DNA of 64,000 nt from Candidatus Ryanbacteria bacterium CG10_big_fil_rev_8_21_14_0_10_43_42 (GTDB taxonomy: Bacteria; Patescibacteriota; Minisyncoccia; Ryanbacterales; 2-02-FULL-48-12), in the NCBI GenBank assembly GCA_002793915.1, contig PFEF01000006.1:97368-161367 (forward strand), written 5' to 3'. Of the stretch, positions 5,235-57,746 are shown one piece after another (within the stretch, counting starts at the first letter, position 1; every line of letters starts with the position of its first letter). The notes beneath the pieces were generated by a model. The model worked only from the letters and a program-made list of their open reading frames with translations. It did not search any database and was not told where the DNA came from. The position numbers and the translations under genes were made by a program.

Positions 5235-7454
5235 GTGAGCATCCTTAAACAACTGGAAATTACCGGATTTAAATCGTTTGCCAAGCCGGTAACGATAGAG
5301 TTTGACGCGCCCATTACCGGTGTTGTCGGCCCGAACGGTTCGGGAAAATCAAATGTATCAGAGGCTATCAAATGGGTACTGGGCGAACAATCCATGAAGT
5401 CTTTGCGTGGAAAGCGCGGGGAAGATCTTATTTTCAACGGTTCGGGTTCGGTGTCTCAGCTCGGCAAAGCAAAGGTTTCCATTACGTTCGATAATAGTAG
5501 TAAGGTGCTTCCTCTTGATTTTGATGAGGTGATTGTTTCGCGTGAGGTATATCGGGACGGAGCGAATGAATATAAATTAAACGGATCTTCCGTGCGCCTA
5601 AAGGATGTTGTGGAACTTATGAGTAATGTGGGCGTAGGCGGATCGGGGCATCATATTATAAGCCAGGGGGAGGCGGATAGGATTTTACATGCATCACCCA
5701 AAGAAAAGCGCGCCATGCTGGAGGATGCGCTGGGGCTTAAAATTTATCAGATAAAGAAAGCGGAAACGGAGCGCAAGCTTGAGCATACGGAAACAAACAT
5801 GGTCCAAGTGGAGGCTCTTCGTCGCGAAGTGGCGCCGCATCTGACATTTTTACGCACGCAGGCGAAAAAAGTGGAAGCATCAAGTAAGTTACGGGAAGAG
5901 CTTAGGCAAAACGTTGCGGAATATATTGCACGGGAAAAGCATGCCATTGATAAAGAATATGCTCGTGTGGAGGCGGAGGAGGCGCCGTATAAAAAAGCAT
6001 ATGAAGAACTTGAAAAAGATTTGCATCTCATACGTTCGTCTTTTCCGAAAGGAGATGAGAAAATAGATACGGCTCACCAAAAAAAACAAGAGACGTACCG
6101 GCATGAGATGAATGAAATAGAGGAGCAGTATCGTGGATTAGAGCGTGAATTCGGCCGTTTGGAAGGACAACTTGCTGTTCTGGCAAAATCTTCCGCACCT
6201 ATTGTCTCATCACACGATGAACGCCATATTGCGGTCGGGGAGGTTAAGGACATTTTAGAGGAAATGCTTTCAATGCTTGCCGATATGGAGAACAGTAGTT
6301 CCGTAAGGGATGTGCAGGAAATTATTACACGCATACGCACGCACGCGGAGTCATTTTTGGAGCGTCTTTCCGTAAAGAAACCAAAAGAGGATATTGACAG
6401 TCAGCCCGCGGAGGAAATACATACTCTCACGAAAGAGAAGGAGTTTATGAATGATGCTATGCGGAAGCTGGCGGAGAAACGGGATGAAATGAGCCTGGTG
6501 ATGCAAAAAGAGAATGAGGACTTTATATCTTCGCGTCGGGCGCACGCGGACGCGGAGCGGCGCATGCACGATCGGGAAGCGGAATTATATACGGTAAAGG
6601 AGACGCTTCAGAAGTATGCGTTTATGAAAGAGCGTGTTCGGCTTCGGGAAGATGAATGGACGCGCGAGCATGAAGAAATGAAGCATATAGTGGAACAAGC
6701 GGACATGGGACGTTATACAGAGGCGTTTTCCCGGGAGGAACGTGAGCAACTTCGCCGGTCTATCCAACGGCTTAAGATAAAACTGGAAGAAGTGGGCGGT
6801 ATTGATACTGCTGTTTTGGAGGAATATAACGAAGTCGCCGAGCGCGATCAATTTTTAGAAAAAGAACTTTCCGATTTGCGGGAATCGGACGAATCTCTTC
6901 GCGCGCTGATGGAAGAATTACAAACACACCTCGAACATGATTTTCAAAAGGGTATTACGCAGATTAATATCGAGTTTGCTCATTTGTTTCAGACAATGTT
7001 TGGGGGAGGCAACGCTTCTCTTATTACCGTTAAAGAAAAAAAACGAAAACAAAACCGCGAGGAAGAATATGAGCAGGAAGAAAATGGCGTTGAGGATGAT
7101 GGGGAAGCCGGTATAGAGATAGCTGTAGATCTTCCGCGGAAACGTATTAAAAATCTTGATATGCTTTCCGGCGGAGAGCGCGCTCTTACCTCAATTGCTC
7201 TTTTATTTGCGATGTCTATTGTCAATCCGCCGCCGTTTTTGGTGCTTGATGAAACGGATGCGGCGCTCGATGAAGCAAATTCACAGCGGTACGGTGCCAT
7301 GCTTCAGCAACTTTCCAAAGAAACACAGCTTATTGTCATAACGCATAATCGTCAAACAATGAAAGAAGCGGGTATTCTTTACGGGGTTACAATGGGATCG
7401 GACGGTATCTCGAAGATATTATCGGTTAAATTTAATGAAGAAAAAACGCCATAA
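5235..7454 (+). CDS. smc: chromosome segregation SMC-like ATPase (short, 739 aa)
   Basis: N-terminal Walker A (GPNGSGKSN), a long coiled-coil region, and a C-terminal ABC signature LSGGERALTSIALLFA with Walker B VLDETDAALD. Sits at the conserved rnc-smc position. Confidence 0.7.
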   Translation: MSILKQLEITGFKSFAKPVTIEFDAPITGVVGPNGSGKSNVSEAIKWVLGEQSMKSLRGKRGEDLIFNGSGSVSQLGKAKVSITFDNSSKVLPLDFDEVIVSREVYRDGANEYKLNGSSVRLKDVVELMSNVGVGGSGHHIISQGEADRILHASPKEKRAMLEDALGLKIYQIKKAETERKLEHTETNMVQVEALRREVAPHLTFLRTQAKKVEASSKLREELRQNVAEYIAREKHAIDKEYARVEAEEAPYKKAYEELEKDLHLIRSSFPKGDEKIDTAHQKKQETYRHEMNEIEEQYRGLEREFGRLEGQLAVLAKSSAPIVSSHDERHIAVGEVKDILEEMLSMLADMENSSSVRDVQEIITRIRTHAESFLERLSVKKPKEDIDSQPAEEIHTLTKEKEFMNDAMRKLAEKRDEMSLVMQKENEDFISSRRAHADAERRMHDREAELYTVKETLQKYAFMKERVRLREDEWTREHEEMKHIVEQADMGRYTEAFSREEREQLRRSIQRLKIKLEEVGGIDTAVLEEYNEVAERDQFLEKELSDLRESDESLRALMEELQTHLEHDFQKGITQINIEFAHLFQTMFGGGNASLITVKEKKRKQNREEEYEQEENGVEDDGEAGIEIAVDLPRKRIKNLDMLSGGERALTSIALLFAMSIVNPPPFLVLDETDAALDEANSQRYGAMLQQLSKETQLIVITHNRQTMKEAGILYGVTMGSDGISKILSVKFNEEKTP

Positions 7455-51346: not shown

Positions 51347-52060
51347 GTGTCTATGAACGAAAACAAAACAATTTTACGTAATTGTAGGGGTACGTGTATT
51401 ACATATAGTAAACAGTCGCAATTCTCGAGAAAGGTACTCGCTGGATTTTTCGGAGTATCCACATTTTTACAAAATATTCTTTTACCTGTTCCGGCACCGG
51501 AGGATCTTCAAAAAGAAATAGAAAACGTTGTTGCTTATATTGAATCAAGTACGCCTAAACCCATAGGAGAGCATTACACTATTGTAGAGTCATTTGATTA
51601 TACGGTAGAGGATGGTGATAATATTCATAGCATTGCGCGTGATCTTAAAAAGGAAAACATATGGGTAACACCAAAGCAGATTATTGAATGGAATAATCTG
51701 AATGGACCGCGGTATTATCTGGATCCGGGACGAATTATCAAAATCAATAAACTTTCATGGGACAAGCAGATCGTAGAGGCGTCATGGTACGGACCCGGAT
51801 TTCAAGGGCGTCCCATGGCAAATACGAAGATTTTTGATCAGAATGATATAGTTGCGGCGCATATGCACTTACCTCTTAATATGAAGGTGCGGGTAACTAA
51901 TTTGGAAAACGGAAAATCTCTCGTCATTCCCATTACTGATCGTGGTAATTTTGAAAAATATAATCGCGGTATTGATCTTTCAAAGCAGGCGGCCAAGGAA
52001 CTTGGGTATCAGGGTGCCGGCGTAACACAGGTGCTGATAGAACCGTTGCATACGCTGTAG
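51347..52060 (+). CDS. LysM domain plus RlpA-like (DPBB) domain protein
   Basis: LysM (VEDGDNIHSIARDL...WNNL) followed by ASWYGPGFQG...VRVTNLENGKSLVIPITDRG. Confidence 0.7.
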   Translation: MSMNENKTILRNCRGTCITYSKQSQFSRKVLAGFFGVSTFLQNILLPVPAPEDLQKEIENVVAYIESSTPKPIGEHYTIVESFDYTVEDGDNIHSIARDLKKENIWVTPKQIIEWNNLNGPRYYLDPGRIIKINKLSWDKQIVEASWYGPGFQGRPMANTKIFDQNDIVAAHMHLPLNMKVRVTNLENGKSLVIPITDRGNFEKYNRGIDLSKQAAKELGYQGAGVTQVLIEPLHTL

Positions 52061-52096
52061 TATATACGGTAGTATATGTGAAGAGCAGAAAGCTGA

Positions 52097-52137
52097 AATG
52101 GGTTTTTGTGTAAAAACAAAAATCGCTTTCAGCTTTT
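52097..52137 (+). terminator. nested hairpin terminator (aagctgaaa ... tttcagctt followed by tttttg)
   Basis: Read directly in the sequence. Confidence 0.35.
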
Positions 52138-52176
52138 TTGCTGAAATATAGTTCTTTGAAGGAAAGGAAGTACGGA

Positions 52177-52584
52177 ATGGTGAAGGTCCTTGGGATAATG
52201 GCAGTGGTTATTATTGCGTATGTGATGTGTGTCGTAGAGGTTGGTGCGCGCGTGAAGGGTATGTTTATAGCAACAACATACCGACAGCAAAAAATTGCTT
52301 CTTGGTACGGTCCGGGCTTTTGGGGGAAGCGTACTGCGTGCGGTAATATTTACACAGGCCGGCAATTAACCGCCGCGCATATGGATTTGGGAGATAAATT
52401 TCCGTGTGGAACGCGCATACGCGTAACCAATCTGCGTAATGGAAAAAGTGCCGTTCTTACCATCGACGACACGGGAAACTTTGCTCGATATGGGAGAGTT
52501 TTGGACGTTTCCTATGCCGCCGCAAAAAAATTGGGCTTTTTAACTCAAGGAACGGCTCCCGTACAAATTAATGTCCTTCCTTAA
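52177..52584 (+). CDS. RlpA-like lytic transglycosylase-family protein (second copy)
   Basis: ASWYGPGFWGKRTACG...IRVTNLRNGKSAVLTIDDTG. The ORF track starts at 52138; the ATG at 52177 precedes the signal-like helix. Confidence 0.65.
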   Translation: MVKVLGIMAVVIIAYVMCVVEVGARVKGMFIATTYRQQKIASWYGPGFWGKRTACGNIYTGRQLTAAHMDLGDKFPCGTRIRVTNLRNGKSAVLTIDDTGNFARYGRVLDVSYAAAKKLGFLTQGTAPVQINVLP

Positions 52585-52648
52585 ACTCTTTTGCCTCTTA
52601 CATTTTAAGGTAAGGGGTTCTTTTTTTACGTGGACTCTGTGGTATAAT

Positions 52649-53125
52649 AGATGCATGAAATTAAAAGAAGGAAAAAAGGCGCCTGCCATAAAACTTCCCG
52701 ATCAAAACGGGAACATATGCCGTTTAGCGGATTACAAAGGCGTATGGGTGCTTGTTTATTTCTATCCAAAGGATGATACGCCCGGATGTACCGTGCAGGC
52801 GTGCGGAATTAGAGACAATTACGCCGCCTTTAAAAAAGCAAAAATTACAGTTTTTGGTATTAGTAAAGACCCCGTAAAAAAACATAAAAAGTTTGAAGAA
52901 AAATATAATCTTCCCTTTACGCTCCTTTCAGATGAAGGATTGACTGTTCTTAAGGCGTATGATGTGTGGGGAACAAAAAAATTCATGGGACGTGAGTATA
53001 TGGGTATTTCCCGTACGTCATTTCTCATAGACCCGGAAGGCAATATTGCGAAAATATATGAAAATGTAAAACCTAATGAGCATGCGGATATGATCCTTAA
53101 AGATGTAAAAATGCTTCGGACATAA
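52649..53125 (+). CDS. bcp: peroxiredoxin, Bcp-type
   Basis: FYPKDDTPGCTVQAC active-site motif. The ORF track starts at 52571; the ATG at 52649 fits the family. Confidence 0.8.
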   Translation, partial: RCMKLKEGKKAPAIKLPDQNGNICRLADYKGVWVLVYFYPKDDTPGCTVQACGIRDNYAAFKKAKITVFGISKDPVKKHKKFEEKYNLPFTLLSDEGLTVLKAYDVWGTKKFMGREYMGISRTSFLIDPEGNIAKIYENVKPNEHADMILKDVKMLRT

Positions 53126-53151
53126 ATCTTTATTTTTAATTTTCAAAAAAC

Positions 53152-53424
53152 ATGGGAATCTTTTTTACCGGTAAAAAGAAAATAACACGCGAAGAATTTC
53201 GTGATTCACTAAATGCACTTCGTCACGAGAGACTTAACGATTCGGATATTAATGATCTTAAAAATATTTTTAGCGGTTCTCTTAATGAAAAACATGATGA
53301 TAAGGGAATTGACGGAGATGAGTTGAAAAAAACCATCGAACTGCTGAAAAAGAATAAGGGAACGCATAATCTCTCAAAAGCACAAATAGAAAAAGCTGAA
53401 AAAAATCTCAAAAAGCGTCTGTAA
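53152..53424 (+). CDS. hypothetical small charged protein
   Basis: 90 aa, K/E-rich. No family recognised. Confidence 0.3.
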   Translation: MGIFFTGKKKITREEFRDSLNALRHERLNDSDINDLKNIFSGSLNEKHDDKGIDGDELKKTIELLKKNKGTHNLSKAQIEKAEKNLKKRL

Positions 53425-53488
53425 CTTACGTGTCGCGTAAGAGTGGTTTTAAATTGCCTTTACGGCTCATTTATAATACAATGTCGCC

Positions 53489-54121
53489 ATGAATATAAAA
53501 AAGACAGCCGTACTGATAATCGTTTTTATAGCCATTGCGGTAACGGGTGCGTTGGTATTTAGGTCGGAATATCAACCTATCAATGTTCCAGACGAACCCA
53601 TAATTAGCGAAGAAGACAAGTACGAAGAACTTACATTTCCGGACAATACCCTTGATACGTCGGATTGGGAGATGTACCGCAATGAAGAATTCGGGTTTGA
53701 GATTCGGTATCCGAGAGGGTGGAAGATAAATGCACCTTTGATACACCGTGGTACAGCAGTAAGTAGTTTTTCTGAAAGTGGATATGGGGGCGAATTGCGG
53801 TTTTTCCCTGATGGTATTCCAAGTTCCGATTACTTGGTATTTATGCGTGTTCGGAATATTTCGCTCGAAAATCAAATTGAGAATGTAGAAAACAGCGAAA
53901 TGTTTCCAATGGCTGGTGTAAAAGAATATATAAAAGTGAATAACACTGTTGGTATTGAAACAAAAGATTTTGAAGGCCCAGGATTTTATGTGTATGAAAG
54001 GTACATTTTAGAAGGGCAAAATAACATAACTTACGAATTTGGTGAACTTAACGAGCCGAACGCAGATAAATATAAATCAGAAATGGAGCAAATGCTCCTT
54101 TCGTTCAAACTCATCAAGTAA
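53489..54121 (+). CDS. secreted/membrane-anchored hypothetical protein, paralog A
   Basis: An N-terminal transmembrane/signal helix, then a shared motif block (EELTFPDNTLDTSDWE, FEIRYPRGWKI, ...LLSFKLIK) with the gene at 54365. Confidence 0.45.
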   Translation: MNIKKTAVLIIVFIAIAVTGALVFRSEYQPINVPDEPIISEEDKYEELTFPDNTLDTSDWEMYRNEEFGFEIRYPRGWKINAPLIHRGTAVSSFSESGYGGELRFFPDGIPSSDYLVFMRVRNISLENQIENVENSEMFPMAGVKEYIKVNNTVGIETKDFEGPGFYVYERYILEGQNNITYEFGELNEPNADKYKSEMEQMLLSFKLIK

Positions 54122-54167
54122 TCCATAGAAATTACTTATTGCAAAAAAATGATAGTATACTATCATC

Positions 54168-54203
54168 GCAAGGTCGGTTAATTGGTAACCGACCTTGTTC
54201 TTT
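54168..54203 (+). repeat. terminator hairpin repeat, copy 1 (ggtcggttaa-ttgg-ttaaccgacc followed by ttgttcttt); copy 2 is at 55100..55135
   Basis: A roughly 35 nt segment repeated identically after each of the two paralogous genes. Confidence 0.5.
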
Positions 54204-54223
54204 ATGTCGCACGCCTTATTTAG

Positions 54224-54343
54224 ATAGAAGTGCATCACGGAACCATTCGCGCCGAACCGGGAGGTGCTGATAGGGGGAGCGCGTTTATTATCGAACTGCC
54301 GTTGGAGGGTATTGAGAAAAATAAAAAAGGTGTTATGGTGTAA
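54224..54343 (+). pseudogene. 3' remnant of a histidine kinase gene (HATPase_c C-terminus only)
   Basis: Translates to IEVHHGTIRAEPGGADRGSAFIIELPLEGIEKNKK*, matching the HK terminal motif HGGxIxxES..GxGSxFxxxLP. It is preceded by in-frame stops and has no upstream kinase sequence. Confidence 0.45.
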
Positions 54344-54364
54344 AGATTATATTCAAGTACATTT

Positions 54365-55054
54365 TTGATACTATACATGCACTGGAACAAAAAATATATA
54401 ATTATACTAATCATAGTCACCATTACTTTAGCGGGGACGCTGTTTTTGAAATCGGAAAACGGGCTTATGCCAGAGGATTCAATGGAAGAACCGGTAAATG
54501 GAATAATGCCTAAAGACAGAATGGAGAAACCGCCCGCCACTACCCCGGATAGTACATACGAGGAACTTGCATTTCCGGATAACACGCTTGATACGTCAGA
54601 TTGGGAGACGTATAAGCCAAGCAGTTTTGATAATAATATCGCATTTGAAATAAGATATCCAAGAAACTGGAAAATCCAATCTCATGGGGAAAAACAGGCC
54701 GGACCAAATGCAACTATGGTTCTTTACGATAAGAGAATAGGTCACGGAGCCGATAACGGTATCTACATGGTAGTAGAAATAATACCTATTGAGCAATACG
54801 TTAGTGAAAGCACGAAATCTTCAGAATATAGAAAAATTAAGGCAGGTACTGTTTATGGGTACGCGCTTTCCGATGAAGCCCAAAAGAACTTTTCAGCATC
54901 AAGTGCATTATCAGATGTAATATTTGGAAACACGAAAGGGAATAGGACGTATACGTTTCGTATAATTGGACCAGATCTGAAAAATCCTTCTGATCCCGAT
55001 TATTATTTAGATGTTCTAGAACAAATCCTTCTCTCTTTCAAGCTTACTCCGTAG
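54365..55054 (+). CDS. secreted/membrane-anchored hypothetical protein, paralog B
   Basis: Same architecture and motif blocks as 53489..54121 (EELAFPDNTLDTSDWE, FEIRYPRNWKI, ...LLSFKLTP). Confidence 0.45.
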   Translation: MILYMHWNKKYIIILIIVTITLAGTLFLKSENGLMPEDSMEEPVNGIMPKDRMEKPPATTPDSTYEELAFPDNTLDTSDWETYKPSSFDNNIAFEIRYPRNWKIQSHGEKQAGPNATMVLYDKRIGHGADNGIYMVVEIIPIEQYVSESTKSSEYRKIKAGTVYGYALSDEAQKNFSASSALSDVIFGNTKGNRTYTFRIIGPDLKNPSDPDYYLDVLEQILLSFKLTP

Positions 55055-55099
55055 ATTCCGGAGGATATTGCAAAGAGGGTATTAATTTAGTAAAATATT

Positions 55100-55135
55100 A
55101 CGGTCGGTTAATTGGTAACCGACCTTGTTCTTTCA
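55100..55135 (+). repeat. terminator hairpin repeat, copy 2
   Basis: acggtcggttaattggtaaccgaccttgttcttt, identical to 54168..54203. Confidence 0.5.
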
Positions 55136-55155
55136 CAACTAGAGGAGGGTAAATG

Positions 55156-56380
55156 TATGAAGATTAGATTGTTCTTGACTGGCACGGTTTTTATCGGTGC
55201 GTTTATTGGATCTGTATACGCAGGATCAATTAATCCTGTAAGTTCTCCGACTGGGACGTTTGATGTACCGCAAGATGAGGATTATTCAGGACCATATTGT
55301 AGTCAGAGTGGATTTAAACTGGATTACGATCAGTACCATATGCAATGGAATGGTATTATCAGTAAATACCATATGGGCGAAGATTGGAACGGAATGTGTG
55401 GTGACGACACGGATGAGGGTTACCCCCTACGAGCAATTGCATTCGGAAAAGTTGTGTATGTGGATGACACGGGCAATTCCACAAAAGGCAAACAGCTTCA
55501 CATTCGGTATTCTTTTCCGTATGCACTGGCACCGAATGATGTGCAAACATTTGATAGCGTGTATTTACACATTACCGGGATTAATCCGAGTGAAGTTTCT
55601 TTTTCCGGATCGGGTACGGGAAGTTTTGTTTCGAAAGGGGATGTTGTCGCATATCTTGGTGGAACTGGTGGGACAGTGGGATGGCCTGCGCATCTTCATT
55701 GGGAGGCATTGTGGGATGATAGTATTTCGCTTACCGAAAATACCTACCAAAATCCACTCACGGTGGATCACGCATTAAAATATCGTGCTCCATCGCTGAT
55801 TGTTGATGATCGGCGCGATATCGTCGGCCATAGCACTCCTGCTCCGGGTAACTGGTATACATTCACCATGCAGGGTAATGCGCCATCATCTACAATGTAC
55901 ATTTGGCATAATGGAGAGCGCAAGAGTTTGAGAAATGCCATTGCGGCTGGATGGATACCGTCAAAGCCCATTCTCCATGAGAGGGATGGAACATGGTACT
56001 ATTACATTGATGTCGACAATAACTTCTTTGAAAACGGTAAAAGGTATGCCATTAAAACACTTATTTCCGGCCCTGTTTTCTACATCCTTATTCCGGGAAA
56101 CGGCTTTACGGAAGACCGTGCCCGACTTGATATGCTTCATGCAGTGGAGAATGATAATGGATACGATTCGGTAAAAACGGAGACGTATAGTGTTGATTAT
56201 AACTGGATGAGTAGTTTTGAGCTTTATCAAATGGAGTTTAAATTATCAAATGGCGATACCGCATATGTATATCAAGCGACAAGCAAGACTAACCCACTAA
56301 TCCGGTATACCAGCCATTATGACACCAGTAGCAGTACCTATTCCGGATGGGTACCGGTGAATTGGAACCGAATGTACTAA
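55156..56380 (+). CDS. secreted M23-family metallopeptidase-like protein with a C-terminal extension
   Basis: Signal peptide from the ATG at 55156, then HMGED (HxxxD) and HLHWE (HxH) motifs. The ORF track starts at 55112. Confidence 0.55.
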
Positions 56381-56661
56381 TGTGTCTACTTTTTAACCTG
56401 TTGTTATATAATCAAATCTTTTAGCTTTCTTGTATTTAGGAAGGCTTTTTATTTTAACGAAGTCCGTATAAAAAAATTTATATAATGGGACATAAGTTTG
56501 AGCTTAGGGTGGGAATTCTTTAATCGCATGTCACTGAATGAAGTGTGAAGTAGATTGGATTCTGATTAAAGCAACTAATTCCTCTAATTGTTTCTTAGTA
56601 GTATCAGGAGTAGGTAGCGTTTCTTATCGTACAAAAGTTCAAAAACTACTCTGTAAAATTA

Positions 56662-56690
56662 TTGACATATAATATATTTTATATTATAAT
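56662..56690 (+). promoter_or_regulatory. canonical sigma70 promoter (TTGACA, 17 nt spacer, TATAAT) abutting the start codon, implying a leaderless transcript
   Basis: The -10 hexamer ends at 56690, and ATG codons lie at 56691 and 56697. Confidence 0.4.
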
Positions 56691-57746
56691 ATGACCATGA
56701 AATATCTCACGGTCATATGTTCGGTAGGAATACTTTTTTTCATTTTTTCTTTTGTTTTTACGGCATATGCCGAATCTGCAAGCCTTTCTCATAGGGGAGA
56801 ACCGGTGGTTTTTAGTGATGTCGGAACACGAAACGAACAAAACGTAACCATGCGGGGAATGGTGCGTCCGGAGGGGAAATCCACCATTGCGTGGTTTGAG
56901 TGGGGATTATCTCCCGATAGTCTTCCCAATGCAACGCCCGGCATATCCCTGGACGCGGCTTCTTCGTGGCAGGGTTATTCTTATAATATTACCTCAATTA
57001 TTATCCCCGTTTATTATCGGTCCGTTGCTTATAATGAAAATGGTATTTCTCGCGGCGGTATAGTAACAACCGACTATGGATATGTACTGTCGGAAGAAAA
57101 AGATGAGGTATTTATTCAACCTGATAATAATCCGTGTGTGTGCGATTTTTCCGGCAGTGACATGCCCTTGGAGAAAGTGTCGGAATGGGATATAGAAAAA
57201 GATATACGTCTTTCCGGTAATTCCATTATTACGTATGCTATTCACGTTACAAATAAAGGACCAAAAGAACTGCATGATATTGTCATAACAGACACGCTTG
57301 CCTTTTCCGTGCCGCCTCCCATACTTTCCATATCGGATAAGGGTGTATATAGCAAAAAAGACAAGACTGTACTATGGACAATAAATCGCATGGAGTCGCA
57401 TGAAACGCGCATACTAATGTATGTAGTTGCGGTGGATGAACATGAGCCGTACGCCATTCTTGCGGGAGGACAAACAACATTAAAGCAAAACGACACATCG
57501 TTTAAGGTGTCTACCTCCACAATAAGTACATCCTCCGGAACATATGAATATATATACGAAGAGCAATCTACAGATTCCGGCATCGCAGGGAAACATATTT
57601 TATCCCCACCTTCTCGGAAGGCATCTTTCTTTTCCGGTTTTATCGGGATGGCGATTGGCGGTTTGGGTATTCTTCTTATATTTCTTCTTATTTCTTTGGG
57701 AGGAATTATAGCCTATGAAAAACGCTTGAATCGTTTGCGGGCGTAA
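56691..57746 (+). CDS. cell-surface protein with a DUF11-like repeat domain and a C-terminal transmembrane anchor
   Basis: Signal peptide, TYAIHVTNKGPKELHDIVITDTL (the DUF11 'TNxGP...VxDTL' pattern), and a C-terminal GGLGILLIFLLISLGGIIAY helix. Confidence 0.45.
   Translation: MTMKYLTVICSVGILFFIFSFVFTAYAESASLSHRGEPVVFSDVGTRNEQNVTMRGMVRPEGKSTIAWFEWGLSPDSLPNATPGISLDAASSWQGYSYNITSIIIPVYYRSVAYNENGISRGGIVTTDYGYVLSEEKDEVFIQPDNNPCVCDFSGSDMPLEKVSEWDIEKDIRLSGNSIITYAIHVTNKGPKELHDIVITDTLAFSVPPPILSISDKGVYSKKDKTVLWTINRMESHETRILMYVVAVDEHEPYAILAGGQTTLKQNDTSFKVSTSTISTSSGTYEYIYEEQSTDSGIAGKHILSPPSRKASFFSGFIGMAIGGLGILLIFLLISLGGIIAYEKRLNRLRA

Follow-up and report, generated by a model that had tools for sequence, protein, structure and literature searches.

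A 64,000-nt stretch of contig PFEF01000006.1 (forward-strand positions 97,368 to 161,367; hereafter the window) from Candidatus Ryanbacteria contains two paralogous envelope-protein genes, P1 and P2, each followed by the same hairpin sequence. The 3' end of a sensor histidine kinase gene lies between them and an M23/LytM-type peptidase gene follows them, which raises the question of how such an arrangement came about. In sequence the product of P1 is the same as COU90_03205, a hypothetical protein from a metagenome-assembled genome of Candidatus Ryanbacteria, and the host genome is placed in the Parcubacteria, candidate phyla radiation. The answer we favour, with a probability of roughly 60%, is that the locus is a Parcubacterial unit of P gene, hairpin and M23 gene carrying an extra segment of 930 bp, composed of a passenger kinase stub, P2 and a second hairpin. 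In itself the segment is a minor and ordinary case of genome remodelling, in which an uncultured groundwater bacterium with a streamlined genome carries a pseudogene stub and an insertion of one gene. The value of the locus is modest and lies in exposing a conserved, previously unannotated Parcubacterial cell-envelope module, made up of the P protein, the hairpin and the M23 peptidase. The features are listed in Table 1; loci and contigs used for comparison are cited by L numbers and individual proteins by four-digit P numbers.

Table 1. Features of the P1-P2-M23 locus in window coordinates
Feature	Position	Strand	Description
P1	53489..54121	+	210 aa; N-terminal hydrophobic helix and PsbP/Mog1-like domain; L071 P clade
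Promoter-like box	54139..54166	+	TTGCAA, 16 nt, TATCAT; 3' flank of P1; consensus scan
Hairpin copy 1	54170..54203	+	12-bp stem 54169-54180/54186-54197, loop ATTGG, then TTCTTT; 56.2 bits with model R1
Histidine-kinase 3' relic	54203..54343	+	From just past the G2 box to the stop codon; kinase profile, tblastn, nucleotide alignment
Extra segment	54204..55133	+	930 bp: kinase relic, P2, spacer, hairpin copy; absent from L071/L072
Promoter-like box	54312..54339	+	TTGAGA, 16 nt, TG-extended TATGGT; inside the kinase relic; consensus scan only
P2	54377..55054	+	225-aa paralog; clade of P0002, L008 and L012
Promoter-like box	55068..55096	+	TTGCAA, 17 nt, TAAAAT; ends 5 nt before hairpin copy 2
Hairpin copy 2	55100..55133	+	23 nt 5' of the M23 start codon; 58.5 bits with model R1
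M23/LytM-type metallopeptidase	55157..56380	+	407 aa; Shine-Dalgarno GGAGG at 55144-55148; HxxxD (HMGED) and HxH (HLH) motifs

P1 and P2 had been described from the sequence as paralogs with common motif blocks, and this was confirmed by BLASTP (E=1e-18, 33% identity across 187 aa). The shared blocks are YEEL(T/A)FPDNTLDTSDWE, (E/K)IRYPR(G/N)WKI and, at the C-terminus, (M/I)LLSFKL. The maximal P2 ORF covers 54365-55054, with a TTG start at 54365 and 229 aa at most; the start is probably the ATG at 54377, which is favoured because of the N-termini of the family and the JGI gene call. When the locus was compared with itself at the DNA level, no duplicate of the whole unit appeared: only the 32-nt hairpin repeat and the 56 nt coding for the YEEL(T/A)FPDNTLDTSDWE block, 88% identical between P1 and P2, could be aligned. 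A bootstrapped neighbour-joining tree of 29 family members placed P1 in one clade with the P protein of L071 (96% bootstrap) and P2 in a separate clade with those of L008 and L012 and with P0002, P0003, P0006 and P0007 (98% bootstrap). P2 is 63% identical to P0002 and about 33% identical to P1, and both P1 and P2 have closer relatives in other genomes than each other. Because they fall into separate clades, P1 and P2 are, on the evidence of the tree, not a recent tandem duplication; they are neither mutual closest relatives nor alignable along the whole unit.

This bears directly on the origin proposed in the preliminary description, namely a recent tandem duplication of gene and terminator in or next to a resident kinase gene, which was thereby destroyed. 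Identical hairpins, and repeats spaced by 930 and 936 nt, which is about the length of one gene unit, are what such an event would leave, and the P family does duplicate in tandem, as in the lineage-specific Pa/Pb pair of L016 (98% bootstrap) and in L075 with its 4-5 copies. Against it stand the low identity of P1 and P2 and their membership of different clades, the failure of the two units to align beyond the two short stretches named above, the lack of a kinase body 5' of P1 or anywhere in the 64 kb, and a sister lineage that has no kinase at the site. The P tree largely refutes the duplication, and we regard this origin as very unlikely. The broader suggestion of paralog expansion and decay held: P1 and P2 belong to an envelope-protein family that is expanding and evolving fast, and the kinase relic is dead.

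The sequence between P1 and P2 was examined for its kinase origin. The stretch 54224-54343 translates as previously stated, and the 39-aa fragment by itself has no Pfam match (E<=1) and no PDB sequence match (E<=10). Because a query of 39 aa is too short for these searches, a lineage-specific profile of 115 full-length Parcubacterial kinases was used to search each of the window's 2,372 six-frame segments. It matched the relic alone, with E=1.6e-7 and a score of 27.6 bits over positions 502-536 of the 538 in the profile, and reading through the in-frame TAG from 54194 gave E=2e-10 and 37.1 bits. Pfam alone was thus empty, yet the likeness is not coincidental and the fragment is genuine. A 547-aa kinase (HisKA_7TM, HisKA, HATPase_c), of which the relic spans about residues 497-547, has 54200-54304 as its sole tblastn match in the window; the tblastn similarities to kinase C-termini had E values of 2.6e-5 and 4e-7. 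Further kinase fragments had been thought worth looking for; neither tblastn with the full-length kinase nor the profile, in all frames, found any other piece in the 64-kb window, which bears out the reported absence of a kinase body upstream.

The relic was aligned at the nucleotide level with the 3' ends of six related kinases. The homology starts at 54203, which is the final base of the 32-nt repeat, and the in-frame TAG at 54221-54223 is a 3-nt insertion relative to all kinases compared. The relic has in common with the HATPase_c domain (PF02518) of 7TM kinases the post-G2 helix, the GxGS turn, the FxxELPL motif and the basic tail, and it aligns to the last ~45 profile positions. Unlike intact PF02518 kinases, it amounts to ~9% of the protein, is interrupted by a stop codon, lacks the H, N, G1 and F boxes and retains only a degenerate trace of the G2 box. 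The profile alignment starts past the G2 box (positions 495-536 of 538), and nothing before position 495, where the region of the phospho-accepting His of HisKA would lie, was found in the window at E<0.01. Because of the in-frame stop, the missing boxes and the degenerate G2 trace, the piece is judged to be a true kinase 3' remnant that is dead and cannot act as a kinase.

The 37-codon ORF 54230-54343 within the relic is open and was annotated by one gene caller (L004), and with Pfam and PDB silent on the fragment it might be taken for a functional small protein, or its kinase likeness for chance. Such a reading is extremely improbable: the profile match is significant and continues upstream past the stop codon, residues conserved in the other kinases compared are changed (GLGKGS to GADRGS, W to R), the ORF has no relatives as a stand-alone family, and the related short ORFs in relatives are cut at differing points. 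An annotation trap is corrected in this way, as a gene in one public assembly turns out to be a kinase relic. Nor was the kinase probably destroyed in place, as the preliminary description had it, because no kinase body lies upstream: P1 is preceded by a 90-aa ORF and a peroxiredoxin gene, with no 5' part of a kinase, and L071/L072 have P1, hairpin and M23 without a kinase.

L071 and L072 represent a sister lineage, and L072 comes from the same metagenome as one of the contigs carrying the window sequence. Their order is uninterrupted: the P1 orthologue (in L071, 46% identical overall and 68% across the last 81 residues), a TTGCAA box, the hairpin, TTGTTCTTTCACA, the ribosome-binding site and the M23 gene. 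Up to hairpin copy 1, the 3' flank of P1 in the window can be aligned to its counterpart in L071, and the box in the window flank is alignable with the L071 box that precedes the hairpin and the M23 gene. After hairpin copy 2, CACAAC followed by the ribosome-binding site aligns with CACACAAAC of L071. Because both flanks align, the window equals the L071 arrangement plus 930 bp, and for this reason the identical terminators reported earlier are the 32-nt direct repeats, 930 nt apart, that bound the extra segment. The involvement of an insertion-type rearrangement is thereby upheld; the preliminary interpretation was partly right, on decay and insertion, and wrong on duplication and on destruction of the kinase in place. 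Within the segment, the spacer that belongs to P2 has a TTGCAA box of its own.

An assembly artefact, in which a mis-join produced both repeat and insert, has in its favour that contig L005 breaks off at window position 54201, the end of hairpin copy 1, as is typical of a repeat-induced assembly break. We give it virtually no weight, as window positions 53400-55200 are present at 100% identity in four contigs (L001-L004) from four different samples and two assembling sources, spanning both hairpin copies and the unique middle. The L005 break may be an effect of the 32-nt repeat on short-k-mer assembly; other short contigs stop at window positions 54333 and 54441.

The history that we prefer runs as follows. 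The conserved unit would comprise one or more genes for membrane-anchored P proteins of PsbP/Mog1 fold, an intergenic promoter-like box, the RNA hairpin with UUGUUCUUU, and a ribosome-binding site with the gene for the M23 peptidoglycan peptidase. The window lineage would have gained 930 bp directly after the hairpin, the simple order P1-hairpin-M23 being kept in the sister lineage. The gained segment would hold the last ~47 codons of a 7TM-type kinase, a P gene of another clade (P2), the P2 spacer and the second hairpin. Its kinase piece would be a passenger from a donor locus in which a kinase gene ended just 5' of P2; the stub more likely arrived already attached to P2 and may have been kept as the carrier of P2 upstream signals. 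An insertion here is favoured over a deletion in the L071 lineage because genes of the P2 clade are the sole P genes 5' of M23 elsewhere, and because the repeats are identical and their flanks unrelated.

Several points weigh against this history. The two hairpins are identical at 32/32 positions, which is unexpected if the segment came from a diverged lineage and would require that the donor was close, that gene conversion followed, or that the segment arose within the genome. A donor locus with an intact kinase directly 5' of a P2-clade gene was not found in a search that covered the contexts of P0002, P0004, P0005 and P0006, and P0002, L008, L012 and L085 have upstream neighbours other than a kinase. 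The promoters and transcript ends invoked are consensus matches only, the hairpin alignment is small (8 hand-picked sequences from 7 lineages), and the P structure model has moderate confidence (pLDDT 69), with a fold resemblance that does not establish function. Finally, an ancestral double arrangement followed by a repeat-to-repeat deletion in L071 explains the same data.

This last alternative supposes that the double arrangement is old, that gene conversion or a shared trans-acting factor kept the hairpins uniform, and that L071 lost the middle segment. Deletion between 32-nt direct repeats would give the exact L071 layout, and hairpins that vary between genomes and are identical within the window genome would suit concerted evolution, or evolution in step with a factor. 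An ancient kinase-P neighbourhood is hinted at, moreover, by the kinase 3' relics of L016, beside the P-M23 cluster, and of L034, ~4 kb off. Yet in all other lineages sampled (L008, L012) the P2-clade gene is the sole P gene 5' of M23, no lineage has a double arrangement with diverged hairpins, and the sharp 32/32 identity beside unrelated flanks looks recent. We hold an old double arrangement to be possible but somewhat unlikely.

With an insertion as the preferred reading, the origin of the kinase stub was considered further. The same genome assembly holds a different, intact kinase, P0053 (COU90_03525), which lies outside the window, where the full-length kinase query finds the stub alone. 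A partial copy of P0053 was rejected as the source of the stub: 13/27 aligned residues match by hand count, and the tails differ. The stub tail GIEKNKKG is of the kinase type found in L020, L021 and P0034 (LEKGVKN, GIEKGGKN), with the GIEKGGKN tail of the L021 kinase being alike; in those genomes the kinase adjoins an aspartyl-tRNA synthetase gene and no P gene.

Kinase stubs recur near related loci. In L016 one stub lies over the start of the first P gene, with its stop codon overlapping the P start codon, and a second lies ~3 kb upstream. In L034, a distant member of the Paceibacterota with an M23 protein 30% identical, a 3' stub at 1470-1781 starts just before the G1 box and is located 5' of a tyrosyl-tRNA synthetase gene, ~4 kb upstream of the P-M23 pair. 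Every stub in the relatives lacks its 5' side, and they are cut at different points. The stubs of L016 and L022 are 89-93% identical at the protein level to the intact L022 kinase over the common part, with differing breakpoints and a tail unlike that of the intact copy. L022 has this intact kinase and, next to a transposase-like remnant, a third stub. Its assembly and that of L018, a carrier of the L016-type locus, go back to one sample, so the L016-type locus and the stub and intact kinase of L022 may come from one genome. Stubs of this kind possibly survive as carriers of the upstream signals of the next gene, an idea prompted by the promoter-like box inside the window stub and by the L016 stub stop codon that overlaps a P start. 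They recur in three lineages or more, which poses a minor puzzle as to what outlasts deletion in very small genomes.

Some details of these stubs were recorded alongside. The 5'-truncated kinase 3' stubs are at L016:5146-5433, L016:2052-2273 and L022:8175-8414, and the intact kinase is at L022:3472-5115; the position of the L034 stub resembles that of the second L016 stub. Directly 3' of the third stub, L022:8420-8700 contains a frame like the C-terminus of an IS-type integrase core (WYNARRVHYAFQNKLSPVEF), recognized by eye, which suggests an area built from remnants. The idea that the stub relatives form a family of mini-proteins was rejected, as two are split full-length kinases and the rest are cut at differing points. 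The split in L021 is a run of N's (2037-2046) and that in L020 an internal gap (6740-6780), both products of assembly, and the L020 kinase has its intact form in P0034; short gene calls consisting of HATPase_c only can thus mislead in databases.

The hairpin together with its tail TTGTTCTTT occurs twice with 32/32 nt identical, at 54172-54203 and 55102-55133. These are the only two occurrences of GGTCGGTTAATTGGTAACCGACCTTGTTCTTT, and shuffles gave an expectation of none even with 3 mismatches allowed. Over 54170-54203 against 55100-55133 the identity is 33/34, so the repeat reported in the preliminary description is real and its length of 35 nt was slightly generous. Both copies fold stably, with -24.9 kcal/mol for copy 1 (z=-5.2) and -15.3 kcal/mol for copy 2 (z=-2.5). 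The same element lies 10-35 nt 5' of the M23 ribosome-binding site in L008, L012, L027, L028, L071 and L074, with a stem around GTCG...CGAC, the loop (A/G)TTGG and the tail (C)TTGTTCTTT; looser versions are present in L026, L031 and L032.

In the eight-sequence alignment, 6/12 stem pairs are changed on both sides, G-U pairs are present, 86.5% of cells form a pair compared to 19-45% when the partners are slid, and the covariation score was reached by 0/500 shuffles. Within this sample of eight, the conserved position and compensatory changes are those of a structured cis-regulatory RNA. A covariance model of the alignment, R1, picked out two further cases on which it had not been trained, those of L026 and L031, each directly 5' of M23, and nothing comparable elsewhere in 354 kb of related loci. 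No Rfam 15 family matches: the best, STnc390, reaches 19.5 bits (E=1.1) where its gathering threshold is 50. The conserved hairpin is not listed in any RNA library. Exact scans of genome and of metagenome contigs with the 23-nt hairpin core each returned 0 hits; as the metagenome scan missed a known JGI carrier contig too, they are uninformative about the copy number in the rest of the genome.

The hairpin is preceded by a promoter-like box of the form TTGCAA, 16-19 nt, TAnnAT, often TG-extended, which ends 2-8 nt before the hairpin base. The layout of box and then hairpin seen before copy 2 was also read from the sequence of L026, L027, L032 and L071, and extended -10-like TGnTATAAn boxes from that of L008, L012 and L031. 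The box inside the kinase relic sits 38 nt 5' of the P2 start. We tie the hairpin to M23 because its position is fixed to the M23 gene and the promoter-like box, and not to the P stop codon. It may be a leader of the peptidase gene rather than a terminator of P, sitting at the 5' end of the peptidase transcript or close to it and acting as leader, stabiliser or weak attenuator; P transcripts may end there too.

The preliminary description had treated the two copies as terminators, and a plain version of this, in which they are intrinsic terminators of P1 and P2 sharing one style and M23 is expressed by read-through, is a real if doubtful possibility. Both copies fit the pattern of a stem and a T-run, and each lies 50-60 nt past a P stop codon. 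The T-run TTGTTCTTT is, however, broken by G and C, and the sequence, the loop ATTGG and the tail TTGTTCTTT are conserved where the M23 proteins are just 40-57% identical, a conservation across lineages that is unusual for ordinary terminators. The position is fixed to the M23 ribosome-binding site and to the box 2-8 nt upstream, and in L026 the P gene is downstream of M23 and the element still upstream of M23. To regard the hairpins as mere terminators was therefore probably wrong. Like Rho-independent terminators, 5'-leader attenuators and stabilising stem-loops, the element has a GC-containing stem and a T-rich run between co-oriented genes; it differs from them in the conservation of loop and tail across lineages, in its compensatory stem changes, in the promoter-like box just 5' and in the interrupted T-run.

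Other identities were considered for the element. A dispersed repeat of REP or MITE type was rejected for the sequence available, with two copies in 64 kb and R1 instances confined to the 5' side of M23 in the 354 kb; the other three TTGTTCTTT sites in the window are without a hairpin. A DNA palindrome serving as an operator is disfavoured by the G-U pairs in L012 and L028, which argue for an RNA structure instead. One gene between identical hairpin-forming repeats, 5' of a resident gene, recalls integron cassettes with their attC sites. attC sites are longer, imperfect hairpins with extrahelical bases, unlike the perfectly paired 23-31 nt of the window hairpin, so the likeness is a resemblance only and an integron-like attC site is presumably a poor fit. 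No integrase gene was noticed at the locus, where no search aimed at integrases was made.

The M23 protein shares the metal-binding HxxxD and HxH motifs with M23/LytM endopeptidases, and the motif residues are invariant among the aligned orthologues. It scored 26.0 bits against PF01551, below the cut-off of 28.7; the orthologues in L008, L009, L010 and L012-L014 pass Pfam, with unmarked PF01551 matches. The window protein is unlike the PF01551 references in this sub-threshold score and in a C-terminal region of ~200 residues that has no Pfam family match. This region (window 55760-56380) is highly conserved among the orthologues, with motifs such as WYYY, FFE.GK, DRARLD and NPLIR, and may form a domain for targeting or regulation.

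A P gene lies directly 5' of M23 in L008, L012, L016, L027-L030, L032-L035, L071 and L074, and this adjacency holds for almost every Parcubacterial locus retrieved. The module of P gene, hairpin and M23 gene offers a concrete point of entry to cell-wall remodelling, or to attack and self-protection, in episymbionts for which experimental genetics barely exists, and the hairpin provides a short candidate cis-regulatory RNA with covariation.

The structure model of the P protein consists of an N-terminal helix, a linker and a beta-rich domain. The proteins had been called secreted; for the modelled N-terminus, a membrane anchor is no worse a fit than a cleaved signal peptide. The domain of the model superposes on PsbP, Mog1 and related structures, with figures of 10.0 for BT_1490, 9.5 for TplEi, 8.4 for LpqN, 7.9 for Tsi3 and 7.4 for PsbP. 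Pfam PsbP_2 (PF18933) gave 14.6 bits for P1 (E=0.033), under the 27-bit gathering threshold, and no match for P2. The proteins of this fold compared with P include the T6SS (type VI secretion system) immunity proteins Tsi3 and TplEi, mycobacterial LpqN, and DcrB; P has no significant sequence similarity to them. A T6SS is not known from these bacteria. Tsi3 acts as immunity protein against a peptidoglycan muramidase, and the depositors of Tsi3 remarked on its likeness to PsbP/Mog1 (PMC3792639). A survey of polymorphic toxin systems names PsbP/MOG1 as one of the domains that occur in fusion with SuFu-like-family immunity proteins, and it notes PsbP/MOG1-like genes beside toxin genes in T6SS operons (PMC3482391).

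By analogy, our best guess for P is a role as partner or inhibitor of the M23 peptidase, tethered to the membrane; that it would control or neutralise the adjacent enzyme is suggested solely by the predicted fold and the adjacency to M23. A bolder and unlikely extension is that P genes are swappable, fast-evolving immunity-like cassettes, with the hairpin and UUGUUCUUU serving both as the M23 leader and as a patch of homology for swapping. If so, episymbionts would use a secreted M23 hydrolase on hosts or competitors, attached pieces such as the kinase stub would travel along as P cassettes are exchanged between lineages, and the window would show one such swap captured. At L075:4001-8470 the order is the other way round, with an M23 gene in front and four or five P paralogs from different clades in tandem behind it, an array that recalls multi-immunity loci.

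Among the remaining features of the region, the 90-aa ORF 5' of P1 (53152-53424) is lysine-rich and has a weak EF-hand-pair match (E=4e-4, below cut-off), with no relatives among the loci examined. No tRNA or tmRNA was found in window positions 52000-57000. The best promoter-like match of the region is at 53448-53491 (TTTAAA, 18 nt, TATAAT; 10/12); it ends 11 nt 5' of the P1 ATG, where there is no Shine-Dalgarno sequence, and because of this absence the P1 mRNA may be leaderless or nearly so. A second, smaller hairpin is present in the 3' flanks of P1-clade genes, at 54150-54165 in the window (TGATAGTATACTATCA), at 6150-6170 and 6950-6965 in L016 (TGCCATGGTAGTATGGCA) and at about 1960-1975 in L071 (CATAGTAGTATG); it has compensatory changes and overlaps a promoter-like -10 box.

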